Shown here: in pieces, positions 3,418-43,044 of the stretch
How the letters are laid out: the number at the start of each line of letters is the position of its first letter
Numbering within the stretch: position 1 is the stretch's first letter
Source: Actinobacteria bacterium 21-73-9
Lineage (GTDB): Bacteria; Actinomycetota; Acidimicrobiia; Acidimicrobiales; RAAP-2
Assembly (NCBI GenBank): GCA_002255565.1
Contig: NCBE01000004.1
Span: forward strand, 1-43,408
Direction of reading: 5' to 3'
DNA: 43,408 nucleotides
The notes under the pieces: model-generated
Seen by the model: the letters and a program-made list of their open reading frames with translations, nothing else
Databases searched by the model: none
Told to the model about the DNA's origin: nothing
Position numbers and translations under genes: made by a program

Positions 3418-4463
3418 CCGGCCAGGACGTCGAGCACCCGGGCCCGCCACGCGGCGAGCGCCGGGTAGGCCTCCTCGGGGGTGTGGCCGAAGCGCAGCAC
3501 CAGCGCGTCGAGCGCCGGGGCGACGACGATCATCTGGCCCTCGTAGCCGCTCGCGAAGTACGAGCCGTGGGCGTCGCCGGTCACCCACCAGTGCCAGGCG
3601 TAGTACTCGCCGGACTCCTCGTCGCGCCCGGTCGGGCGCTGGGCGGTGGCCACCCACTCCTCGCTGAGGACGCGCCGGCCGTCGACCACGCCGCCGCGCA
3701 GGTAGAGCAGGCCGAAGCGCGCGAAGTCGAGCGCCGTCGCGTGCAGAAAGCTCGAGGCGACAAAGACCCCACGCCCGTCGAACTCAGCCCGCGCCGCCAT
3801 CCTCAGGGGGCTGAGGAGGCGCTCGTCGATGAAGCGTTGGTAGGCCTCGCCGCGGCCGACCTGGTCGGCGACGATCCGGCTCACGATGTTGGTGGTGCCC
3901 GAGGAGTAGCGGAAGGCCGCGCCCGGCGCCTCGACGAGCGCCTTGGCGGCCGCGAAGCCCGCGGTGTCGGCCTTGGCCTCGCCGAAGAGCATCTCGACCA
4001 CGTCGCTCGCGCCGTCGAGCTCGTAGACCTCGCTGAAGGCGAGGCCGCTGCGCATCGCGAGCAGGTCCGCGAGGGTGATCGCGTGGCGCGGGTCCGCGGG
4101 GTCGGCCCACTCGGGCACCGGGGCGCGCGCCGCGGGGTCGAGGCGGCCCTCGTCGACGAGGATCCCCACGAGGGCGTGCAGGACCGACTTGGCCATCGAC
4201 CAGCTGAGGAGCTCGGTCGTCGGGCCGACCTCCTCGGCCGGCCGATCGAAGTGGGGCCGCAGCCCCCCGTAGCGCTCGGCGACGACGGCCCCCCCGCGCA
4301 CGACCACCACCGCGTTGGTCTCGCCGTAGCGGGGGTCCTCGAAGGCCTCGTCGAGCAGGGCCCCCAGCCCCGCGGGCGCCTGCGCCCGGGGCCAGGCCTC
4401 CCGCGGCCAGGGGGCGAGAGAGGAAACGACGGCCGGGGTCACGTCGGGCAGGTCCGAGGGCAC
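3414..4463 (-). CDS. Serine hydrolase, beta-lactamase class C-like family
   Basis: SWSMAKS (SxxK), LLAMRSG, FRYSSG, DFARFGLLYL, ASGYEGQ. Start moved to GTG 4463 (4478 is an alternative) because the track start lies inside tRNA-Phe. Confidence 0.88.
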   Translation of the reverse strand: MPSDLPDVTPAVVSSLAPWPREAWPRAQAPAGLGALLDEAFEDPRYGETNAVVVVRGGAVVAERYGGLRPHFDRPAEEVGPTTELLSWSMAKSVLHALVGILVDEGRLDPAARAPVPEWADPADPRHAITLADLLAMRSGLAFSEVYELDGASDVVEMLFGEAKADTAGFAAAKALVEAPGAAFRYSSGTTNIVSRIVADQVGRGEAYQRFIDERLLSPLRMAARAEFDGRGVFVASSFLHATALDFARFGLLYLRGGVVDGRRVLSEEWVATAQRPTGRDEESGEYYAWHWWVTGDAHGSYFASGYEGQMIVVAPALDALVLRFGHTPEEAYPALAAWRARVLDVLAG

Positions 4464-4483
4464 GGGCCATTGTGGCACCGTCG

Positions 4484-4556
4484 TGGTCGAGACCGGCGTC
4501 GATCCGGTGACCTCACGCTTTTCAGGCGTGCGCTCTACCAACTGAGCTACTCGACC
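4484..4556 (-). tRNA. tRNA-Phe(GAA)
   Basis: GGTCGAGTAGCTCAGTTGGTAGAGCGCACGCCTGAAAAGCGTGAGGTCACCGGATCGACGCCGGTCTCGACCA folds as a cloverleaf; anticodon arm CACGC-CTGAAAA-GCGTG. Confidence 0.96.
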
Positions 4557-4577
4557 TCGTCACCCGAGGGTGCCGAG

Positions 4578-4652
4578 CGGACCTGACGGGATTTGAACCC
4601 GCGACCTCCGCCTTGACAGGGCGGCGTGCACTCCGAGCTGCACCACAGGTCC
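4578..4652 (-). tRNA. tRNA-Asp(GTC)
   Basis: GGACCTGTGGTGCAGCTCGGAGTGCACGCCGCCCTGTCAAGGCGGAGGTCGCGGGTTCAAATCCCGTCAGGTCCG; anticodon arm CCGCC-CTGTCAA-GGCGG; T-loop TTCAAAT. Confidence 0.96.
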
Positions 4653-4721
4653 ACGCGCGCCGCGGGCGAGCCCGTGGCGCGAGGGGCCAGTCTATCGCCT
4701 GGCCCGACGACCCCCCGGGGC

Positions 4722-5108
4722 TCAGTCGCCGGTGGCGCCGGTGAGCACCAGGCAGAACGGGTGGCCGATGGGGTCGAAGAAGACCCGGAAGGTCGTGCCC
4801 GGCTGGTGGTCGGCCCTCGTCGCGCCGAGCGCGAGCGCGGCGGCCTCGCCCGCGTCGAGGTCGTCGACCGAGAAGTCGAGGTGGAGTCGCTGGGGTTGGG
4901 GACCCTCGGGCCACGTGGGCGCTGGGAGGGCCCCGACGCGCTGGAACGCGAGGGTGGGGGCGCCGTGGTTGTCGAGCTCGACCCACTCGACCGACTCGGG
5001 CGGGCCCCCGAGGGGCGCGACCGCCAGGCCCGTGAGCGCACCGTAGAAGTGGGCGAGGGCCACCGGGTCGGGGCAGTCGATGGCCACGAGGCTGAAGGTG
5101 GCGCGCAT
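4722..5108 (-). CDS. VOC/glyoxalase-like family protein
   Basis: VAIDCPDPVALAHFY, LAFQRV, PTWP, LHLDF, DPIGHPFCL. TACGCT -10 box 6 nt upstream (leaderless). Confidence 0.9.
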   Translation of the reverse strand: MRATFSLVAIDCPDPVALAHFYGALTGLAVAPLGGPPESVEWVELDNHGAPTLAFQRVGALPAPTWPEGPQPQRLHLDFSVDDLDAGEAAALALGATRADHQPGTTFRVFFDPIGHPFCLVLTGATGD

Positions 5109-5315
5109 GGGCGAAGCGTAGCCACGCCCCGGGCTCGGAGAGACGTTACGAACATCGCGGAACGTCGCGCGAGGGGCCTCGCGTCCCGAGTGCGCCGGGC
5201 CGTCGTCCGCCCGGCGACCCGGGTGAAATACCCCGAAACGCCCAACCGCTTCACTACTGTCGATTGCGTCGGCCGCTCGACGTTCCCCACCTCCGCGCGG
5301 CCGGGAAGGAGTCCC

Positions 5316-8243
5316 GTGGCGAGCACGCTAGGCCGGCGCTACCAGTACGGCGCGAGCTTTGTCGACCAGGCGTCGGGCATCCGCTTCGAGGGACACCATC
5401 CCTTCGAGCGCCCCGACCTGTGGCGGATCTACCTGAACGAGGCCGAGGGCGCCTACAAGGGCTACGGGGTCGAGGAGTCGCTCAGCCGCCGCGACCTCGA
5501 GGACGGCGTCGGGGTGCCCCTCTTCTTCCTCGGCTTCAACGCCGAGGGCGAGGCCGTCGCCGGGGTGAGGTTCCACGGGCCCCTCGAGAGCCGCCACCAG
5601 GCGGCGATCGTCGACGAGATGGGCGGGTCGAGCGAGATCGAGGAGATCGGCTCGCTGATCGACGCCGAGGTGCGCCTGGGCGCGATCGAGGTCAAGGGCG
5701 CCTGGTCCAAGGGCGAGCAGGTGGTGGGCACCCGGCTCGTCCAGACGATCTCGCGCTCGGTCACCCACGCGATGACCTGGCTCGGGGCCGAGTTCGCCGT
5801 CGCGGCCATCCGCCAGGAGCTCCTGGCGATCGGGGTGCCCACGGGGGCCCGCCAGATCGGCGCCGAGGCGGTGCCCTACCCCGACGAGCGCTACCGCACG
5901 ATCGCGGTGTGCTGGCGCCGGGCCCGCACGCCCGAGCTCTCGACGCCCGAGCACCAGCTGGCCCTTCGCCGCGAGGCCGAGGAGCTCGCCCGCGGCGCCG
6001 GCGCCGGCGCCCTCTCGCCGATCGACCCGGCCCACACCCGCACCCACTCGTGGCGGCCCCTCGTGATGGACGGGGCGAGCCGGACCGAGCGCGAGGTCCT
6101 GCGCATCTTGCGGGCCGACCCGTCGCTGCAGATCATCGACCGCTACGCCGAGCAGCGCGACCAGCTGGGCGACCTCGCGCCGCGCCCGCCGGGCTCGATC
6201 CTCGATGAGGGCGGCCGGTGGGTCTACTACCCGTGGCGCCGCGCCGTCGTGCGCCTGCTCGCGCCGCGCGCCTTCAACACCTTGCGCCTGGACCGCAACC
6301 ACAACAAGATCACCGCCGAGGAGCAGGGGCGTCTGCGCCGGCTCCGCGTCGGGGTGATCGGGGTGAGCGCCGGTCACTCGATCGCCCACGGGCTGGCCAT
6401 GGAGGGCGTCGTGGGCGAGCTGCGCCTGGCCGACTTTGACACCATCGAGCTCTCCAACCTCAACCGGATCCCGGTGAGCGTCATCGACCTGGGCGTCAAC
6501 AAGGCCGTGGTCGCCGCGCGACGCATCGCCGAGGTCGACCCCTACCTCAGCGTACGGGTCGAGACCGAGGGCATCACCCGCGAGAACCTGCCCGCGTTCC
6601 TCGACGACCTCGACCTGGTCGTCGAGGAGTGCGACTCGCTCGACGTCAAGTTCCTGGTGCGCGAGCTCGCCCGTGAGCGGGGCATCCCGGTGGTGATGGA
6701 GACGAGCGACCGCGGCGTGCTCGACGTGGAGCGCTTCGACCTCGAGCCGGACCGCCCGCTCTTCCACGGGCTGATCGGCGACATGGACTACGCGACGCTC
6801 GCGGACCTCGCGCTGCCCGAGAAGTCGGCCATCGTGCTGCGGATGCTCGGTGCCCGCGAGGTCTCGAGCCGCAGCGCCGCCTCCTTCGTCGAGCTCGGCC
6901 AGACGGTGACCGGCTGGCCCCAGCTCGCGAGCGAGGTCACCCTCGGCGCGGTGTCGGTCGCCGCGGCGGTGCGTCGACTCGGGCTGAAGGGCGACCTGCC
7001 CTCGGGCCGCGTGCGCGTCGACATCGAGGAGATCCTCGACGACCTGGCCCCGGTCGAGCTCGCCGAGGCGCCCGACCTCGAGACGCCCCCGCCCGAGGAG
7101 CCCCCGCTCGAGAGCGACGACCCGGTCACGCTCATCGTCGATGCCGCGCGGCGCGCGCCCTCGGGCGGCAACATCCAGCCGTGGCGCTTCGAGGCCGACG
7201 AGGACGAGGTGCGCTTCTATCTCACCCCGGAGCGCACGACGCGCATGGACGTCGAGCACCGCGCGGGCTACCTGGCTCTCGGTGCGGCGCTCATGAACGC
7301 CCGGATCGCCGCGGCCTCGGTCGGCCGGCTCGGCGCCGTGCGACTCTTCCCCTCGGGGGCGAGGTCCAACCACGTGGCCACCCTGGAGCTGGGCCGCGAG
7401 CGCGACCACCAGCTCGCGCCGCTACTCGGCGCGGTCGCCACCCGCACGGCGAACCGCCGTCCGGGCTCGCCCCAGGCGATCGAGCCCGAAACGCTGGCCG
7501 ACCTCGCCCGGGGGGTCGAGCGCGAGGGGGCCCGCCTGCGGATCGTGACCGAGCGCGACCCGCTCACCGAGGTCGGCCGGATCCTCGCCGAGTCGGACCG
7601 GCTGCGCTTCTTGCTGCCCGAGCTCCACGGCGAGATGGTGGGCGAGCTGCGCTGGCCCGGCCTCGACTCGCTCGAAGAGGGCCTCGACGTGCGGACCCTC
7701 GAGATGGACGCGATGTCGACCGCCCTGCTCGAGGTGCTGAGCCGGCCCGAGGTGCTCGACCACGTGGCCCGCTGGCGCGGGGGGCGCAACCTCGGCCTGC
7801 GGACCGCGGCGATCATCGCCTCGAGCTCGGCGGTGGCCGCGATCACGGTGCCCCGACCCGACCCCGCGTGGTTCGTGCGTGGGGGCGGGGCCCTCGAGCG
7901 GTTCTGGCTCGAGACCGACGTGGCCGGCCTGGCCGTCCAGCCGGTGTCGCCCGTCTTCCTCTTCGCCCAGGACGAGGAGGAGCTGCTCGACCTGGCGGGG
8001 GAGCGCCACGTCGAGGAGATGGCCAACCTGCACTGGCAGTTCCGCCGGTTCTGGGAGCTCGAGGAGACCGAGACCCTGGCCATGGTGGTGCGGGTCTCGC
8101 ACGCCCCGCGCCCCAGCGTGCGCAGCGTGCGGATCCCCCTCGCCGAGGTCCTCAGCCGCGGGGAGACCCCGGCGAGCAGCCCCTCGACGCGGGCCTTCGA
8201 CGCCCCCCCGTTCGACGCGTACTCGGCGACCTGGAAGAACTAG
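5316..8243 (+). CDS. Tri-domain fusion: Rv1356c-like putative N-acyltransferase + ThiF/MoeY (Rv1355c-like) adenylase + nitroreductase-fold domain
   Basis: GTG start after AGGAG. N-terminal PDLWRIYL..A..AY..YGVE, LFF, G.R.HGPL, IEVKGAW and YPDERYRT match my recollection of M. tuberculosis Rv1356c. Middle WVYYPW, RLDRNHNKIT, GVSAGHSIA, ADFDTIELSNLNR, EECDSLD, WPQLASEV is Rv1355c/ThiF-type. C-terminal RAPSGGNIQPWRF and RTANRR is nitroreductase-like. Confidence 0.88.
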   Translation: MASTLGRRYQYGASFVDQASGIRFEGHHPFERPDLWRIYLNEAEGAYKGYGVEESLSRRDLEDGVGVPLFFLGFNAEGEAVAGVRFHGPLESRHQAAIVDEMGGSSEIEEIGSLIDAEVRLGAIEVKGAWSKGEQVVGTRLVQTISRSVTHAMTWLGAEFAVAAIRQELLAIGVPTGARQIGAEAVPYPDERYRTIAVCWRRARTPELSTPEHQLALRREAEELARGAGAGALSPIDPAHTRTHSWRPLVMDGASRTEREVLRILRADPSLQIIDRYAEQRDQLGDLAPRPPGSILDEGGRWVYYPWRRAVVRLLAPRAFNTLRLDRNHNKITAEEQGRLRRLRVGVIGVSAGHSIAHGLAMEGVVGELRLADFDTIELSNLNRIPVSVIDLGVNKAVVAARRIAEVDPYLSVRVETEGITRENLPAFLDDLDLVVEECDSLDVKFLVRELARERGIPVVMETSDRGVLDVERFDLEPDRPLFHGLIGDMDYATLADLALPEKSAIVLRMLGAREVSSRSAASFVELGQTVTGWPQLASEVTLGAVSVAAAVRRLGLKGDLPSGRVRVDIEEILDDLAPVELAEAPDLETPPPEEPPLESDDPVTLIVDAARRAPSGGNIQPWRFEADEDEVRFYLTPERTTRMDVEHRAGYLALGAALMNARIAAASVGRLGAVRLFPSGARSNHVATLELGRERDHQLAPLLGAVATRTANRRPGSPQAIEPETLADLARGVEREGARLRIVTERDPLTEVGRILAESDRLRFLLPELHGEMVGELRWPGLDSLEEGLDVRTLEMDAMSTALLEVLSRPEVLDHVARWRGGRNLGLRTAAIIASSSAVAAITVPRPDPAWFVRGGGALERFWLETDVAGLAVQPVSPVFLFAQDEEELLDLAGERHVEEMANLHWQFRRFWELEETETLAMVVRVSHAPRPSVRSVRIPLAEVLSRGETPASSPSTRAFDAPPFDAYSATWKN

Positions 8244-8245
8244 CC

Positions 8246-8331
8246 GCCCGGACCGGGTCGGGCCAAATCACAACACAATCACAACGGACGGGTCCCTCGG
8301 CCACAATTCGGGCCCGTCGCCCGGTCCGGGC
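8246..8331. promoter_or_regulatory. 12-bp inverted repeat enclosing tandem AATCACAAC direct repeats, upstream of the GGDEF-EAL gene
   Basis: GCCCGGACCGGG (8246-8257) is the exact reverse complement of 8320-8331. AATCACAAC occurs at 8266-8274 and 8277-8285 (11-bp period). Confidence 0.5.
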
Positions 8332-8440
8332 CCGCTCGCCCCTTGTGGGGACGGGTGGGGCCCAATTACTGTGGGGAGCGGACTTCGTGTGCTGAGACTC
8401 ACCCGACATCCGCTGACCGATCCGAACGTGGGGCACGGGT

Positions 8441-10620
8441 ATGACGACCGACATCTCGACTAGCGCTGAGGCCACCGCGGCCGAGACGCGTCTCGTGGTC
8501 GAGACGCTCCTGCGCGTGATCTCGGGCACCGAGATCGTGGCCGTCGTGACCTGCGAGGGTGCGGCGGTGCCCGGCATCACGATGGAGCCGCTCGTCGGCA
8601 AGACCGCGGGCGACGCCTTCGCCCGGATCGTCGAGCGGGTCCGCACCGAGCTCGAGGGCGACCCCAGCGGGGTCGGCTCGTTCTCCCTCGCCGTCTCGAG
8701 GGTCGAGTGGGGCGTCCTGGTCGACCCGATCCTGGTCGACGAGCGGGTCGTGGGGGCCCTCGTGATCGCGCGCCACGGTCGCAGCTGGTCTCGGCGCGAG
8801 AGCTCGCTCAGTCGGGCCTTCGCGCGGATGCTGAGCCGGGTGGCGGTCCTCGCCGGGCGCGAGAGCAGTCTGCTGCGCCAGCGGAGCCTCGACACGCTCG
8901 TGCGCCAGGTGGCCGAGATCCTCATGGCCGGCAACGCCGCCAACCTCCAGCAGACCCTCGACACCACGGTGCGCCTCCTCGGCGAGTACCTCGAGAGCGA
9001 CGCCGCCTTCTTGCGCCGCAACGATCACGAGCGCGGCCTCTCGATCCTGGTCTCGGAGTGGCCGCGGCGCGAGAACGTGCCCGACCCGGACCCCCTCGGC
9101 GAGGTTCCCTTCGACGTCGACCCGGTGTTCGCCGCGATGAAGGACCTGAAGACGCCCTACATGCCCGAGCAGTCCGAGACGCCCGAGGAGTACCTCGAGC
9201 GCGTGGAGAAGGGCTCGGGCGTGTCCGAGGTGGGTGGGGGCGCGGTGCCGCTGCTGATCGGCGACACCACCTGGGGCATCCTCGGCTTCTTGCACTTCGG
9301 CCTGCACCGGTGGGTGCCCGAGGAGATCAACGCCCTCCAGGCCGTCGCCTCGATGCTGGCCCAGCTCCAGGCCCGGCTCGACGCCGAGGCCCGCACCCTC
9401 TACAGCGCGAACCACGACTACCTCACGGGCCTGCCCAACCGGCCGGCCCTCGTCGCCGAGCTCGAGCGACGCCTGTCCACGGGGCGCTCGACGGCGGTCA
9501 TGATCATCGACCTCGACCGGTTCAAGATCATGAACGACTACCTGGGCCACGCCAACGGCGACGAGCTGCTGCGGGTGATCGGCGACCGGCTTCGCACGAG
9601 CGTGCGCCAGAACGACTTCGTCGCCCGACTGGGCGGCGACGAGTTCGTCTTCCTGCTCGACAAGTGCCGCAGCGAGCTCGACGCCGTCGCCTCGGCCTAC
9701 CGCATCCTTGAGGTGATCGGCCGCCCGGTCGAGATCATGGGCCAGGTGATGAACCACACGGCCTCGATCGGCGTGGCCCTGCCGAGCGTCGAGTCGTTGA
9801 CCGCCCTGGAGCTGATCTCGCGGGCCGACGTGGCGATGTTCGAGGCGAAGTCGATGGGCCGCGGCCACGTGGTGGTCTTCGACGGCACCCTCGCGAAGAA
9901 GGTCGACGACCGCAGCCAGCTCGAGATCCAGCTGCGCCAGGCGATCGAGTTCGACGGGCTGCGCCTGCACTTCCAGCCCGAGGTCGACCTCAACACGGGC
10001 AAGCTGCTCGCCGTGGAGTCCCTGGTGCGCTGGGAGCACCCGACGAGGGGTCTGCTCACCGCCTCGGAGTTCATCAAGGTGGCCGAGGAGACGGGCCTCG
10101 TGACCAAGATGGGTCGCTGGGTCTTCGCCGAGGCGTGTCGTCAGCTGGGCGTGTGGCGCCACCGCCACCCCGAGCTCGACTTCACGGTGCGGGTCAACAT
10201 GTCCCCGGCCGACTTCAAGATGGGCGACCTGGTGGGCTTCGTCGCGGCGTGAAGATCGCGCTCGACGACTTCGGGACGGGCTTCGCCTCGATGACCGAGC
10301 TCAAGAACCTGCCAATCGAGATCTTGAAGCTCGACATGACCTTCGTGCGCGGGATCGTGCGCGACAACTTCGACAAGGCGATCGTCGAGTCGATCATCCA
10401 CCTCTCCAAGGCCCTCAACCTCGAGGTCGTCGCCGAGGGGATCGAGTCGAGCACGATCGTCGACAAGCTCCGCGAGCTGGGCTGCCACCGCGGCCAGGGC
10501 TACCTCATCTCCATGCCGATGGCGGCGAGCGAGCTCGAGACCCTGCTCGAGGCCGGCTCGGTGCTCGAGTCTCTCCTGCGCAGCGGTGACGTCGACACGT
10601 TCGACGCGTCCGATGCTTGA
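8441..10620 (+). pseudogene. GAF-GGDEF-EAL diguanylate cyclase/phosphodiesterase (Rv1354c-like), frameshifted by an internal deletion in the EAL domain
   Basis: HDYLTGLPNR, IDLDRFK, GHANGD, RQND-x5-GGDEF, QPEV, ESLVRW, VNMSP. The frame stops at 10250-10252. GVKIALDDFGTG...LKLD...VVAEGIE...GQGYL resumes in another frame to 10620, and the intervening IEITE segment is absent. Confidence 0.85.
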
Positions 10621-11443
10621 CGCCGACCCTCGCGCGAACGCCCCCGAGGTCGACCTCGACGAGGTCGACCGCCACGGCTACGAGCCGTGGGTGTTCCGGA
10701 CCCTGCTCGCCGAGCTCGCGGTGGGCGAGCTGGGCATCAACTTCGTCTACACCCTGCTCGAGCGCCTGGCCGAGCGCCACGAGCTCGACGACGCCGTGGT
10801 CGTGCTCTCGGACGACGCCTTCGGCACCCAGACCTTCCGCCTGGGCGCGCGCGTCGAGCCGGTCGACATGATGACCCAGCTGGGGACCGACCCGGGCCTC
10901 TACTGCACGCCCGACGTCGTGTCCGAGTCGGAGGCCGAGGCGGTGCGCGCGGCCTGCCAGCTGGCGCTCTCGCTGCAGCTGGCCCGCTTCCGGGCCGGCC
11001 AGGACCCGCTCACCAACATCGCGAACCGGCGCAACTTCGACCAGTCCCTCTCGGTCGCCTCGGGCCGGGCCGCGCGCTACGGCTGGCCCTTCACCCTGGT
11101 GCTCATCGACCTCGACGGCTTCAAGCTGATCAACGACGAGAGCGGTCACGAGTTCGGCGACTACCTCCTGCGCCAGTTCGGCTTCGCCCTGCGCCGCTCG
11201 ATGCGCTCGGGCGACACGCCGGCGCGCGTCGGCGGGGACGAGTTCGCCGTCATCTTGAACAACGCCGAGGGCAACGAGGCGCTCGGCTTCACCGACCGCC
11301 TGCGCCAGCAGCTCAAGGCCGGCGGGGTCCCGATCGACTTCACGGTGGGCACCTCCTCGGCGCCCCGGGAGTCGACCGACCCGGGCGAGCTGTTCCGGCT
11401 GGCCGACGCGCGGCTCTACCAGAGGAAGGGCGGGCGGGACTGA
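10613..11443 (+). CDS. Diguanylate cyclase (GGDEF) with divergent N-terminal sensor region
   Basis: DPLTNIANRR, IDLDGFKLIND, GH, RSGD-x5-GGDEF (I-site present), ADARLY. Start overlaps the upstream EAL stop. Confidence 0.92.
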   Translation: MLDADPRANAPEVDLDEVDRHGYEPWVFRTLLAELAVGELGINFVYTLLERLAERHELDDAVVVLSDDAFGTQTFRLGARVEPVDMMTQLGTDPGLYCTPDVVSESEAEAVRAACQLALSLQLARFRAGQDPLTNIANRRNFDQSLSVASGRAARYGWPFTLVLIDLDGFKLINDESGHEFGDYLLRQFGFALRRSMRSGDTPARVGGDEFAVILNNAEGNEALGFTDRLRQQLKAGGVPIDFTVGTSSAPRESTDPGELFRLADARLYQRKGGRD

Positions 11444-12048
11444 TGCTGCGGATCGAGGAGGACTTCGAGCTCGAGCTGCGCTCGCTGCCGGGCGTCCTCA
11501 ACGTCGGGTTCGAGCGCGACGAGGACGGCGGGGTCACCACGGTGACCCTGGTGACCAACGCCCCGAACCGGGACGAGATCACGACGGTGGCCCAGCAGAT
11601 CTCGGCCCTCTACTACCCCGAGGCCCGGGTCGTCGTCGACGACGTGAACCGTCTCACCGAGGCGACCCTGGGGGGGCGCGGGGGGGCGAGGGCGGCCCTG
11701 GTGCGCGCCGAGTGCGACGCCGAGGGCGTCTGTGAGGTCGTGCTCAACTACGCCGGTCGCCTGGCCACGGGGCGGGCCCCCAGCGGGCCGCTGATCGGCG
11801 GGGTGGAGGCGACGCTCGCCGCGCTGCGCCAGCTCGGCTTCGACATCCCGTTCTCCCTGCTCTCGGTCTCGCACATGATCGCCGTGCGCAACTGGCCGGT
11901 CGTCGTTGTGCTGCGCTCGACCCAGGGCGGCTCCGACCGGTTCGGCATCGCCCAGTCGGACAACGACGTGCTGGCCGCGGCCCGCGCGTCGCTGTCGGCG
12001 CTCAACCGCCTGCCGATGACCGCGCGCGCCAACGGCGCGTCGAGCTAG
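11443..12048 (+). CDS. Hypothetical protein; C-terminal half resembles the LeuA allosteric (regulatory) domain
   Basis: TGATG translational coupling. G..GP..G.VEATLAAL...VVVVL......RFGIA...DVLAAARASLSALNRL matches the pattern I recall for the LeuA_dimer domain. Confidence 0.65.
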   Translation: MLRIEEDFELELRSLPGVLNVGFERDEDGGVTTVTLVTNAPNRDEITTVAQQISALYYPEARVVVDDVNRLTEATLGGRGGARAALVRAECDAEGVCEVVLNYAGRLATGRAPSGPLIGGVEATLAALRQLGFDIPFSLLSVSHMIAVRNWPVVVVLRSTQGGSDRFGIAQSDNDVLAAARASLSALNRLPMTARANGASS

Positions 12049-12057
12049 CCCCTCGGC

Positions 12058-12715
12058 CTAGGCGGGCTCGCCCGCGCGCATCACCGTGAGGGGCGTGCGG
12101 TGCGTGGGCTCGGCCACCACGCAGATCGCGCTGCCCGGCACCGCCATCTCCTCGACCAGGACCGACCCGCCCTGGCGCACGGCCGCCTCGCGCGCGCGCT
12201 CGAGCGAGTCGACGACGTAGATCGGGTTCCACGCCGGCGGCCCCTGCTCGGGACTCCTGGTGGGAGAGAAGCTCGCCGCTGTGGTGGTCGAACCAGCCCG
12301 GCGCGCCGGGCTCGTTCACGGCGCCGAACCCCCCGAAGGCTCCGGCCTCCCAGAGCGCGACGGGTGCGCCCGAGGGGTCCTCGAGCAGGACCGTGCGACC
12401 GAGGTCCCCGACCTCGGTGATCGCGGACGTCGGGCGCGCCCCGAGGGCCACGGCGGCCGCGAGAGAGCTGTCGACGTCGCCGGTGGCGAAGTAGGTGGTG
12501 AGCCGACCGGGCGCGCCCTCGCCGACGGTGGCGCCGAAGACGGCGCGCTCGGCGTGGCGGGCGACGGCGTAGTGAGAGACGTCGGAGCCGCCCACGTCCC
12601 AGCTCCAGGCGAAGAGGGCCGTGAGGAAGGCGCGCCAGGCCTCGTGGGCCTCGAGCGAGTCGACCGTGACGTCGACCCACGCCGGGGTGCCGGGATGGTG
12701 GGCGGGAGTGTCCAT
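12058..12715 (-). pseudogene. Two-domain VOC family protein, frameshifted by an internal deletion
   Basis: First domain complete (GTPAWVDV...YFATGDVD...DPSGAPVALWEA...NEPGAPGWFDHHS). After about 12275 the second domain (PAWNPIYVVDSLERARE..VRQGGSVLVEEMAVPGSAICVVAEP) is in another frame and ends at TAG 12058-12060. Confidence 0.8.
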
Positions 12716-40980: not shown

Positions 40981-41009
40981 GGGCACTTGAAGGGCGCTCC
41001 ATGGGCGCT
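40981..41009. repeat. Three GGGCRCT direct repeats at 11-bp period (possible integrase arm-type sites)
   Basis: GGGCACT 40981, GGGCGCT 40992 and GGGCGCT 41003, about 70 bp inside the att core. Confidence 0.5.
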
Positions 41010-41299
41010 TCCGTAGAGCGGCGGTGATTGGGCTCGGGAGGTTAGACCGTCTATATCCGTCTCATGACGACTGGTGGGTTCGACGTGGAGCTGGCGAGTC
41101 GCCTTCGACCCCCTTCGCAATCGAGCGCCCTCATCTCATAGTTCCTGTACTGTGCCAATTCCTCCGTGACCTGTCGTTATTAGGGGAGGTTGGGGCCACG
41201 TCGGGGCTGGCGCTGGAGCCAATTGGTGCTGGCTCAGAACGAACTATCTCGAGTGTTGGATACGACATTGTTCAGCTCAAGCACGTCAAGTCAGATTTC

Positions 41300-41602
41300 G
41301 TGGTGTGGACGGTGGTCGCATCGTCTGGGAACTGGAGGAAGCTAAGTCGCCCGGAACTAGATAAATACGGAATAGATCCCCATACAACAAAGTCGGACAT
41401 CTACGGAAAAGGCAACAATAGTCAGTACGACATATACATCAACAAGGACAACGGTGAGATTGCAACTGGCCCGAAGCGACTTACCCCAGACTCGGAGATG
41501 CAGCCGATAGGGTGGAAGGTCAGCGGTGATCAAGTGGATGAAGGTATTCCATTGAACATTCCACTGGAGGACGGAGGAGGTGAGTTCTTCTTCGATGGCT
41601 AG
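41300..41602 (+). CDS. Orphan polymorphic toxin C-terminal domain, Ntox33-like (start uncertain; probably a fragment)
   Basis: RKLS..EL.KYGIDPH..K..IYGKGNNSQYDIY.NK.NGEI...PK.......PIG resembles my recollection of Ntox33 (GID.H..K...S.YD.Y....G.I...PK). No delivery domain upstream. Confidence 0.65.
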   Translation: MVWTVVASSGNWRKLSRPELDKYGIDPHTTKSDIYGKGNNSQYDIYINKDNGEIATGPKRLTPDSEMQPIGWKVSGDQVDEGIPLNIPLEDGGGEFFFDG

Positions 41603-42020
41603 CAACGAGTCGATGCAGGAAGAGGATGTCGCCAAATGCCGCGTTTGGCTGACGGTCATCGAGGCAGGAGTCAATGGCTCATCCTTGAGCAAGATGCTGA
41701 AAGTAAGTGGCGCGCGAGTTCGTAGAGAGGGACACCCGGCAAAGTATGCGCCGTATAGCAGTAGTGGCAAAAGGCTTCTTCGGCATAGTTCGTGGTCTTA
41801 CAGAGTTCCGATGCCTTCTACGGCGCAGTTGGAACGGCAATTGGAGTATCTCATCCGGACCGTGGACGGGAAAGTACTTGGGGGGATTCTGGCGACCAGA
41901 CCTTCAGCGATTCCGGTGCTCGAGATTGAAGTCCAGAATGAAACTGGCTTGAACTTCCCGGCGGAAGTTGTGGACTGGCTCGCGTCTTTTGGAGGCTCAA
42001 TTGATGTCGATATCTATTGA
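41595..42020 (+). CDS. Putative immunity protein, DUF4279-like
   Basis: Overlaps the toxin stop; S.W.Y, LE.QL..L and terminal G..FPAEVVDWLASFGGSIDVDIY pattern. Confidence 0.7.
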   Translation: MASNESMQEEDVAKCRVWLTVIEAGVNGSSLSKMLKVSGARVRREGHPAKYAPYSSSGKRLLRHSSWSYRVPMPSTAQLERQLEYLIRTVDGKVLGGILATRPSAIPVLEIEVQNETGLNFPAEVVDWLASFGGSIDVDIY

Positions 42021-42059
42021 TTCCTGAATACGCGAGGAGTTCAACTGACCCATCCTCAA

Positions 42060-42537
42060 GCTTTGAAGGACGCATCCACGCTTGATACAACGCGCGGGCC
42101 CGCCTTGGGCACGTGCGGTGGTGGGGTCTGCCCCCACTCTTCCTGACAAACTGTCAACAAAACGTGCAGCAGTCCCCTTCGACAGTCGAGCTCGATCGCG
42201 AAGAAGATGTGCGCGTCCTTCAAGAACTCTTCCGCTCGGCGAAAGTCCCCCCACTCCCTCTCAAGTTACTTCTGGTGTTTGCGCTCGTCGCCCGTGAGCC
42301 TGGGACCAAGTCCACCATCAATCAGGGTCTATCCGGCCAAGTAACGAAGGGTCTCAGGTGCCACGCCCAACTTGCTCGACACCGACGTGAATGTCGGCTA
42401 GCCGGACGAAAGCTCAGCAAGGTGTTCGAAGACCTTCCGCACCGCCCGCTCAGGAACCTGTGGTGGGTATCTACGGATTTCTGCCATGGGCTGATCCTCT
42501 CAATGGAATTGTTCGTCAGTAAACCCGGGGTGGTTCA
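42060..42537 (-). mobile_element. Degenerate IS3-family (IS6110/IS51-group-like) element remnant
   Basis: Terminal TGAACCACCCCGG at 42537-42525. OrfA from ATG 42487 reads MAEIRRYPPQVPERAVRKV...KLGVAPETLR...IDGG...(shift)RAEEFLKDAHIFFAIELD, with three in-frame stops. Left boundary approximate. Confidence 0.85.
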
Positions 42538-42934
42538 GCATCACTACCCGCCTGCTTCCACCTTCGGTCTTAGTGCAGGCGAAACGTTTCGAATGACTAG
42601 CAATTCTTCGTCGAGAGTCGTTACTTATTCGTTCGATGTTGTCAATGATTCAGACCGTGTTGCGTACGTTCGCGCTGCGGGCCGCAGCGGAGGGGACATG
42701 ACTGTAATCAAGACGGGCTCTTACGACACGCTGCATGTGATTGCTCCGGGGAGGTCTCGCCCGGTCACCATCGCGTTCCGCATAGGAGCGTGTAATCATC
42801 GGATTCGGGGCGACTGGCCAATCCCGATTGATGTTGGTCGGTCTCGCTCTGCGACGACTCGAGTGAGTGTCAGCCCGCCGTTGGCTGGGAGGCTTCAGTG
42901 GCAAGAATACGTGGTTGATCTGATATGCAAGTGA
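42538..42934 (+). pseudogene. 3' remnant of an unknown beta-rich protein gene, apparently cut by the IS
   Basis: Open frame directly abutting the IS end (...YSFDVVN...IAPG.SRPVTIAFRIGAC...W....V..IC). An internal ATG at about 42593 could allow a short CDS. Confidence 0.45.
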
Positions 42935-43044
42935 CAGGTCTGACGTTCCGCACTTCTCGGGTGTGATATTCGCCCCACGTCAGTTAGAAGTTTTGACCTG
43001 CCCCAGGGTGATTCAGTGATCCAGAGTATTCGAAGTTCAGCCCC

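Follow-up and report, generated by a model that had tools for sequence, protein, structure and literature searches.

A four-gene locus of an Acidimicrobiales genome is interpreted here, with a probability of about 0.48, as a fused oxazolone synthase whose product or precursor tunes an adjoining c-di-GMP enzyme, together with a two-gene unit that reads c-di-GMP. New here are the tight co-occurrence of the synthase with a DcpA-type enzyme, the largely matching trees of the two, a linkage that survives rearrangement, the recognition of genes 3 and 4 as a module of their own, and the LeuA-regulatory-like fold of gene 4. The locus was found in a window of 43,408 nt (the whole stretch of DNA that was analysed) and, as an earlier note on this DNA had described, its four genes occupy 5316–12048 on the + strand, with gene 2 overlapping gene 3 (gene 3 ATG at 10613, gene 2 stop at 10618–10620) and gene 3 overlapping gene 4 (TGATG at 11441–11445). 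The host lineage comprises actinobacteria of soil and mine drainage.

5316–8243, + strand: gene 1 (975 aa), predicted fusion of a TrzA-like N-acyltransferase with TrzS (ThiF cyclase, flavin oxidase)
8244–8440, + strand: spacer of 197 nt, AT-richer, poorly conserved outside close relatives
8441–10252, + strand: gene 2, 5' part, with a weak GAF-like domain, GAF, GGDEF and the first EAL half, ending at a premature stop
10244/10245, + strand: deletion junction in gene 2, with 118 nt missing relative to close relatives and a frameshift
10249–10620, + strand: gene 2, 3' part, in a different frame, with the second EAL half including DDFGTG (positions 147–236 of the Pfam EAL profile)
10613–11443, + strand: gene 3 (276 aa), an unnamed N-terminal domain and a GGDEF domain
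11443–12048, + strand: gene 4 (201 aa), an alpha/beta N-domain and a C-domain modelled as LeuA-regulatory-like

Organization of the locus

Among 120 other genomes of the genus, gene 1 was found in 80 and gene 4 in 86, with both present in 79 and neither in 33, a co-occurrence that exceeds chance. When the two lay on the same contig, they were always in order (70/70) and spaced 3.0–4.5 kb apart. That all four genes form a single ancient unit was rejected, as genes 3 and 4 are widespread without the synthase. Genes 1 and 2 are separated by 197 nt in this lineage, which counts against sensing of a synthase-derived ligand by gene 2, and the spacer may hold a promoter for the latter. A promoter and terminator scan of the spacer found neither a sigma-70-like site nor a terminator and was uninformative, and a search of 4300–12400 for Rfam families, riboswitches included, returned two tRNAs only, with no match in the spacer. 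RNA run X20 contained pieces from relatives only (share 0.09) and is silent on expression at the locus.

A probable oxazolone synthase

By sequence, gene 1 is a TrzA–TrzS fusion of the tryptazolone synthase family. Residues 241–947 match NF005901 (the Rv1355c family) at 890.5 bits, the cut-off being 476; Pfam recognizes ThiF (326–461) and Nitroreductase, and the ThiF domain falls inside the TrzS clade with the mycobacterial members (quick IQ-TREE, 73-row clade, SH-aLRT 100). The TrzA-like part, about residues 1–230, has no Pfam name and is 27–33% identical to the separate gene adjoining TrzS in loci of Mycobacterium, Nocardia and Nakamurella. The TrzS catalytic residues were assigned in gene 1 from spacing, by which D440, R764 and Q875 correspond to D217, R540 and Q651 of the M. 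smegmatis enzyme (intervals of 324 and 111 versus 323 and 111); D440 and R764 are kept in 36/36 copies and Q875 in 24/36. Identification as a molybdopterin or thiamine adenylyltransferase was rejected, those models scoring far under cut-off. The product is likely an N-acyl oxazolone made by one chain, and the substrate amino acid is probably tryptophan. Judging by family membership, the kept catalytic residues and the published chemistry, gene 1 would condense acyl-CoA with an amino acid, close the ring in an ATP-dependent step, and then desaturate it with FMN and O2.

The locus had been put forward as a candidate undescribed signalling circuit. Its synthase family and the signalling idea are, in fact, already on record: the tryptazolone synthases TrzA/TrzS (Rv1356c/Rv1355c) were described in 2025, in a paper whose Discussion already proposes signalling and notes the adjoining rv1354c and rv1357c (PMC12856293). 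Gene 1 shares with them its NCBIfam family, domain order, clade and catalytic-residue spacing, and a GAF-GGDEF-EAL gene adjoins in both cases, whereas the fusion of the acyltransferase to TrzS, the Acidimicrobiales host and the two additional genes set the present locus apart. OxzAB of Proteobacteria (bioRxiv 10.1101/2020.06.11.147165) and TyzACB (PMC10404671) likewise combine an acyltransferase, a ThiF cyclase and a flavin oxidase to give oxazolones, but they belong to a different ThiF subcluster from TrzS (PMC12856293), their products derive from tyrosine or phenylalanine, and the available text of the two reports mentions no c-di-GMP neighbour. As to where the products are found, acyl-tryptophan builds up extracellularly and tryptazolone intracellularly (PMC12856293). 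Two published observations count against a signalling role, namely that tryptazolones were undetectable in one producer's own cells (PMC12856293) and that oxazolone addition gave no phenotype in the OxzAB preprint (bioRxiv 10.1101/2020.06.11.147165).

Linkage of the synthase to a DcpA-type enzyme

A linkage of synthase and GAF-GGDEF-EAL enzyme across distant Actinomycetota had been claimed in the earlier note, and neighbourhood, co-occurrence and tree analyses all agree with it; in particular, the neighbourhood check, in which loss of the linkage among relatives was to count against the idea, found the linkage conserved. With related, hence non-independent, genomes included, and with a GAF profile made from synthase-adjoining copies that renders the count of genomes with both partly a matter of construction, a draw of 301 genomes from the order gave 41 with synthase and GAF, 2 with the synthase only, 9 with the GAF only and 249 with neither. 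The corresponding numbers for one 38-genome genus were 12, 2, 2 and 22. A draw of 401 genomes from the phylum, 8 of them in common with the order draw, contained 11 synthases above cut-off, all 11 accompanied by the GAF, and one more strong GAF occurred alone. In the 73 rows of the TrzS clade (22 near-duplicate loci having been removed beforehand), the locus included the GAF enzyme in 67, another GGDEF gene in 5 and none in 1, while the GAF enzyme was seen in 0 of the 30 tree rows outside the clade. For 60 synthase and GAF-enzyme pairs the two trees were correlated in distance (r 0.74) and had 28 of 38 strong splits in common, an agreement expected from linkage alone, and six strong conflicts between them count against the preferred reading. 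Because of the non-independence of related genomes, Fisher P values are given no weight, and nothing claimed here depends on the unpublished genome G938.

The GAF enzyme lies directly downstream of the synthase in 53 of these 60 pairs, and in the others it is upstream or 2.6–5.1 kb off, one row being mis-scored. Such arrangements bear upon two other explanations. The synthase protein itself could regulate the cyclase of gene 2 by direct contact or local channelling, with the lipid secondary, as might be thought from the abutting or overlapping stop and start codons of most loci outside the Acidimicrobiales, and from a regulatory RpfR–RpfF (synthase) interaction named in the title of a paper cited by PMC8846402. 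The two genes are, however, separated, inverted or kilobases apart in several loci, and the loci examined contain no synthase–cyclase fusion, which makes this improbable. It is also improbable, and slightly more so, that the genes have merely hitchhiked together by block transfer and loss without a functional tie. Patchy distribution and block inheritance would yield the same co-occurrence and matching trees, but the linkage outlasts reordering in loci L113, L116, L135, L146, L221 and L223, and spans divergence down to about 45–50% identity. The conserved linkage of synthase and sensor that is expected of a quorum-sensing pair is seen here.

Gene 2 and its GAF domain

Both GGDEF motifs of the locus are intact and carry RxxD I-sites (RQND and RSGD, each five residues upstream), as first noticed in the earlier note, which also placed a sensor region before each of them. 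In gene 2 this holds, Pfam placing GAF at 168–308 ahead of GGDEF (323–475) and EAL (497–599), but in gene 3 a GAF is undetectable. On sequence grounds the gene 2 GAF belongs to the mycobacterial DcpA/Rv1354c subfamily, and about residues 147–603 of the protein are 40–46% identical to the TrzS-adjoining gene of mycobacterial and related loci. The architecture is also that of DcpA (M. smegmatis) and Rv1354c, from which gene 2 differs by an additional N-terminal GAF-like domain and, in this assembly, by its frameshift. The RxxD I-site is present in 38/38 Acidimicrobiales copies versus 4/52 other linked copies, and ESL replaces EAL in 9 of the 38. The GAF was modelled with a pLDDT of 90, and its fold search returned generic GAF matches only, with no close solved structure, and therefore no ligand can be inferred.

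The 118-nt deletion at 10244/10245 deprives the EAL domain of its EVTE stretch, and the resulting frameshift produces the stop at 10250–10252. Taken as assembled, this counts against ligand sensing by gene 2. Gene 2 is intact in 38 of the 39 related loci in which it is covered, and no other part of the assembly was found to contain the missing stretch. In sequencing run X1 (0.95 of sampled words present), an 833-nt contig is identical to 9818–10244 and diverges exactly at the deletion junction; the 406 nt left over correspond to 118 + 288 and would end 30 nt into the next contig. Since the X1 contig leaves at the junction and the leftover length fits, the deletion is probably an assembly error, and in the living organism gene 2 probably has an unbroken phosphodiesterase half.

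What the GAF responds to is where readings of the locus part. Synthase and gene 2 might simply be under shared regulation, both belonging to one stress or starvation response, with the GAF reading GDP or another metabolite, or with c-di-GMP controlling the synthase. This is possible but on the unlikely side. In its favour, and against lipid sensing, the DcpA GAF of M. smegmatis is reported in a review to bind GDP (PMC8846402, in the text available), and the GAF copies of 10 genomes without a synthase are mostly conserved, retaining the invariants R192, D195, E206, W207, R210, D217 and P218 while only F230, Y251, V269 and F283 drift, down to 40–70%. Antibiotics, moreover, induce oxazolones in Proteobacteria. 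Against it, the GAF subfamily is scarce outside synthase-bearing genomes (9/258), and unrelated types of sensor (7TM/hybrid kinases, SpoIIE, LuxR-type) adjoin more distant synthase homologues in 12 of 19 loci, as would be expected beside a signal synthase, a count made on 70 of 148 neighbours, nearest first, with no background control. By analogy with the BDSF synthase and RpfR, the odds that the synthase is tied to gene 2 through ligand sensing by the GAF are put at about even. The available text on the Burkholderia RpfF/RpfR system (PMC8846402) describes, as proposed here, a c-di-GMP enzyme whose sensor binds a lipid signal and which is coupled to the synthase of that signal, but synthase and signal are unrelated, the sensor is PAS and not GAF, and binding is proven there and predicted here.

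Genes 3 and 4

The earlier note regarded genes 3 and 4 as an extension of the synthase module. Their order is indeed conserved within the genus, but they are a separate Acidimicrobiales module, apparently an undescribed one; literature searches found no description of it. Gene 3 consists of an N-terminal domain of ~105 aa and a GGDEF domain with an intact catalytic motif, the RxxD I-site and the ARYGW arginine. The N-terminal domain was rejected as a GAF, with matches in 0 of 43 family members at E up to 0.1 and an hhalign probability of 0.1–0.2%. Gene 4 has an N-domain (residues 1–68) and a C-domain (81–192) that in its structure model (pLDDT 83) has the fold of the LeuA/citramalate synthase allosteric domain (PF08502; 3fig, 3f6g). 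Foldseek matched the model to LeuA with E 3e-5, and VIA-align to 3f6g with Z 8.4 and rmsd 2.6 over 103 aligned residues, near the level of a common arrangement. The Pfam score for PF08502 (LeuA_dimer) is 14.8 bits, under the cut-off of 24.9, and LeuA_dimer is matched by 18 of 57 family members with E values no higher than 0.1, the best being 1e-4. A sequence profile of gene 4 gave nothing significant among solved structures (best E 0.017), and an Atlas search returned unnamed actinobacterial clusters only. Unlike the LeuA domain, gene 4 stands alone or is fused to a GGDEF-type domain, and not to a synthase.

Their overlap, their co-occurrence and their natural fusions show that genes 3 and 4 function as a unit, older and wider than the tie to the synthase. 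In other families of the order they adjoin or are fused at 25 of 40 loci, none of the 40 loci has a synthase domain, and 11 such families have the pair without a synthase nearby. A profile search yielded 25 fused proteins, in all of which the GGDEF motif is gone and the c-di-GMP-binding I-site residues R142, R178 and D181 are kept. PelD is a degenerate-GGDEF receptor that binds c-di-GMP through its I-site. The fusions resemble such receptors in losing the catalytic motif and keeping the I-site, but they are soluble and have other partner domains, and gene 3 of this locus retains its GGDEF and is not degenerate. A predicted complex of gene 3, gene 4 and c-di-GMP scored a median of 0.58, as did one control, and is weighed neither for nor against an interaction. 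In L221 and L223, a sister lineage in both the synthase and GAF-enzyme trees, the same synthase and gene 2 directly follow a fused 3+4 gene, and L244 shows the start of this arrangement.

The earlier note also hinted that gene 4, or genes 3 and 4 together, could be the receptor of the synthase product. The LeuA-like fold (known members bind amino acids), the near-perfect co-occurrence of genes 1 and 4 within the genus and the retention of gene 4 beside the synthase in two arrangements would suit such a role. The pair, however, is found in the 11 other families at loci without a synthase, most TrzS loci have no gene 3/4 pair, and no TrzS-family gene was found in any of 10 pair-bearing genomes tested from other families. 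This last result makes an origin of gene 4 as a receptor of the lipid unlikely, and the whole proposal is very doubtful.

Proposed mechanism and implications

In the reading preferred here, the synthase and the DcpA-type enzyme, co-inherited and neighbours despite rearrangement, would be coupled by binding of the lipid, or of its acyl-amino-acid precursor, to the gene 2 GAF, which would set the level of c-di-GMP. Genes 3 and 4, acting as a single unit, would work downstream of c-di-GMP, and as the fusions lose catalysis and not the I-site, binding of c-di-GMP there would be the conserved core of the unit. The two-gene unit of this locus would both make and read c-di-GMP and relay it to gene 4, an output or allosteric partner that may bind an amino acid. 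It can be put forward, as a tentative and rather unlikely generalization, that N-acyl oxazolones are widespread bacterial signals, with the DcpA-type GAF as receptor in Actinomycetota, the same synthase tied to kinases in other phyla, and, in the Acidimicrobiales, a new two-part effector for the resulting c-di-GMP that combines an I-site GGDEF domain with a stand-alone LeuA-type allosteric domain.

The physiological role of oxazolones is considered a major unresolved question (PMC12856293), and the same paper merely remarks on the adjoining c-di-GMP genes. The present locus makes the role of these lipids testable, with co-occurrence counts that single out one soluble domain, the gene 2 GAF, as candidate receptor. 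If the proposal is true, the mycobacterial type of c-di-GMP enzyme would have a natural input, and the Actinomycetota a synthase/receptor pair. Independently of this, genes 3 and 4 are a candidate new family of c-di-GMP effectors in a little-studied class.

Locus Organization

The four co-oriented genes of the earlier note, and the overlaps at both of its junctions, match the sequence. The window, contig C11, belongs to an Acidimicrobiales genome bin that is 1.95 Mb in size and 88% complete.

5316-8243, + strand: gene 1, a TrzA-TrzS fusion and predicted oxazolone synthase
8441-10620, + strand: gene 2, a DcpA/Rv1354c-type GAF-GGDEF-EAL enzyme
10613-11443, + strand: gene 3, an unnamed N-domain followed by GGDEF
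11443-12048, + strand: gene 4, a small alpha/beta N-domain and a LeuA-regulatory-like C-domain

A GGDEF motif and an RxxD site (the c-di-GMP-binding I-site) are present in both genes 2 and 3, as had been noted. The GAF-like sensor region assigned to gene 3 was not recovered, its N-terminal domain having no detectable GAF similarity. Gene 2 carries a 118-nt deletion at 10244/10245, which causes a frameshift partway through the EAL domain. The gene is intact in 38 of 39 relatives that cover it, a contig from the best-matching sequencing run, X1, is the same as the window up to 10244 and diverges exactly there, and the leftover length of that contig fits the missing 118 nt. In all probability, this deletion is an assembly error.

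Gene 1 is preceded, at a distance of about 660 nt, by two tRNA genes (4484-4556 and 4578-4652, - strand); a short gene lies in between. No genomic-island sign was seen for the operon, where GC is 69-75%, as in the flanks. The spacer ahead of gene 2 includes, at 8264-8290 and 8300-8375, a tandem AATCACAAC repeat and CACAAT/TTGTGG motifs, kept solely in close relatives, and these are possible regulator sites. At 41001-43000, GC is 54-56% compared with ~73% elsewhere, possibly a foreign or RNA-gene region.

The Synthase and Its Relatives

Gene 1 scores 890 bits against the Rv1355c family model (cut-off 476), and its residues ~1-230 are a match for the stand-alone gene found next to TrzS in loci of mycobacteria, Nocardia and Nakamurella. 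PMC12856293 shows that TrzA and TrzS (Rv1356c and Rv1355c) acylate tryptophan, which the pair then ATP-cyclises and FMN/O2-desaturates. D440, R764 and Q875 of gene 1 correspond by spacing to residues mutated in that study, and in a quick tree the ThiF domain falls inside a clade of 73 rows that also contains mycobacterial members of the TrzS type. Given this chemistry, spacing and placement, the product is likely to be an N-acyl oxazolone, with tryptophan as the probable amino acid, and oxazolone chemistry itself is predicted with high confidence.

A second TrzA-TrzS fusion, apparently independent, occurs in family f73 (loci L113:6959-10021 and L116:4791-7757) with the GAF enzyme upstream. Supplementary Fig. 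S1 of PMC12856293 may bear on distribution and fusions. In L157 and L158, ThiF genes of the TrzS clade lack the oxidase half, and both adjoin a plain GGDEF gene.

Neighbours (70 of 148) were scanned around 19 more distant synthase homologues and locus L051. As a raw count without background control, a kinase, SpoIIE or LuxR-type gene was adjacent in 12/19 of the distant loci, including 3/3 Bacteroidota and 5/6 Patescibacteria loci. In Patescibacteria (L070-L075, L080, L081), ThiF and oxidase are split genes; a HisKA_7TM kinase lies downstream in L072, L074, L075, L080 and L081, and an unnamed 500-aa gene plus an amino-acid lyase or dehydrogenase upstream.

Linkage of Synthase and Gene 2

That linkage of the synthase with a GAF-GGDEF-EAL enzyme is conserved in distant Actinobacteria, as had been proposed, agrees with co-occurrence, tree and neighbourhood counts. 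Among 301 genomes taken in one draw from the order containing mycobacteria, the synthase, scored over the family cut-off, was found in 43 and a gene 2-type GAF in 50 (both 41, synthase only 2, GAF only 9, neither 249), the GAF profile having been built from synthase-linked copies and the counts treating related genomes as separate when kin are not independent. In a phylum draw (n=401), the GAF was present in 11/11 synthase genomes, and a strong GAF alone in one other. After removal of 22 near-duplicates, the synthase tree showed the gene 2-type enzyme in the locus for 67/73 TrzS-clade rows (another GGDEF gene in 5, none in 1) and for 0/30 rows outside the clade. Synthase and gene 2 trees of 60 pairs correlate (r 0.74), with 28/38 strong splits common and six strong conflicts, and the link holds where gene order has changed. 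That genes 1 and 2 are functionally connected is predicted with fairly high confidence.

For eighteen orphan GAF copies, the synthase is absent from the vicinity. In ten from synthase-less genomes, most conserved residues are kept and the main drift is at F230, Y251, V269 and F283, which, judged from GAF topology, may line the pocket. The main rival explanation, which we consider less likely, is that the two genes are simply co-regulated and the GAF senses GDP; in M. smegmatis, GDP is reported by a review (PMC8846402) to bind the GAF of DcpA. The reading we prefer is that the synthase product, or a secreted acyl-amino-acid precursor, most likely binds the gene 2 GAF; such direct sensing is predicted at about even odds.

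In the genus, the 4-5 kb ahead of the synthase often include one more EAL or PAS-GAF-EAL gene (L038, L040, L042, L043, L045), an arrangement that echoes rv1357c.

The Gene 3 and 4 Module

Among 120 genomes of the genus, genes 3/4 accompany gene 1 in 79, neither is found in 33, and 8 are discordant; gene order is kept in 70/70 same-contig cases. A wider gene 4 profile matched 53/301 genomes of the order. At 40 loci from other families, gene 3 directly precedes, or is fused to, gene 4 in 25 (11 families), the synthase domain was found in 0/40, and whole-genome searches of ten such genomes found a TrzS-family gene in 0/10. Neighbours scanned at 12 of these loci included HD_5 (4), DUF5317 (5) and group 1 glycosyltransferase (5) genes, the first being HD-GYP-type.

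When 1.84 billion representatives were searched with a profile, the best 150 matches listed included 25 fusion proteins (470-590 aa) in which the N-domain of gene 3 is combined with a GGDEF-like domain and the two domains of gene 4. The catalytic motif is lost in all 25, while the RxxD pair and ARYGW arginine are invariant in all 25. Loss of the motif with retention of RxxD is an established pattern of I-site receptors of c-di-GMP, and on residue evidence the fusions have the pattern of such a receptor. Genes 3 and 4 are thus predicted, with fair confidence, to be a c-di-GMP-binding unit. Two metagenome loci, L221 and L223, carry the fused gene just upstream of the same three-domain synthase and gene 2, and the start of this arrangement is visible in L244. 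In both trees the L221/L223-type lineage branches as the sister group of the window's genus, so the grouping of the four parts has persisted in two different gene orders.

By structure comparison (Z 8.4, moderate), the gene 4 C-domain has the LeuA/citramalate synthase allosteric-domain fold, backed by weak Pfam matches in 18/57 members. The N-domain of gene 4 is similar to small alpha/beta domains, CDF-transporter C-termini for example; this arrangement is a common one. Divergent gene 4 paralogues lie opposite HD_5 genes in L188 (4531-5214) and L192 (4710-5444), near GGDEF-EAL genes in L205, L206 and L210, and also in L189 (6391-7158); the HD_5 and GGDEF-EAL neighbours suggest a general association of the family with c-di-GMP loci. 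Unfused gene 3 copies with a decayed GGDEF motif occur at L253:2506-3354 and L189:2502-3398, RxxD being kept in L253. The window's own genome has a second gene 3 N-domain protein with hydrophobic C-terminal helices (contig C189, L255:9287-10174), in a GT2, GH16 and sugar-epimerase cluster flanked by EAL and GGDEF-EAL genes, possibly a polysaccharide output of c-di-GMP.

Discussion

In the proposed chain, the ligand-bound GAF would shift the balance of c-di-GMP synthesis and breakdown by gene 2, and genes 3-4 would amplify and read the pool, gene 4 acting as output or allosteric partner. We put the whole chain, from product or precursor to genes 3-4, at a probability of about 0.48. The synthase part of the circuit is already described: PMC12856293 reports its chemistry and the position of trzAS next to rv1354c and rv1357c, and its Discussion mentions signalling as one possibility. 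The signalling idea was thus voiced previously, and the GAF as oxazolone receptor is the candidate put forward here. A systematic count of the synthase/gene 2 linkage, a test of oxazolone sensing and a description of the gene 3 and 4 module were not found in the literature searched, where subscription papers are thinly covered. The question of the oxazolone's role is now narrowed to a simple binding test, and genes 3 and 4 add a candidate new family of c-di-GMP effectors.
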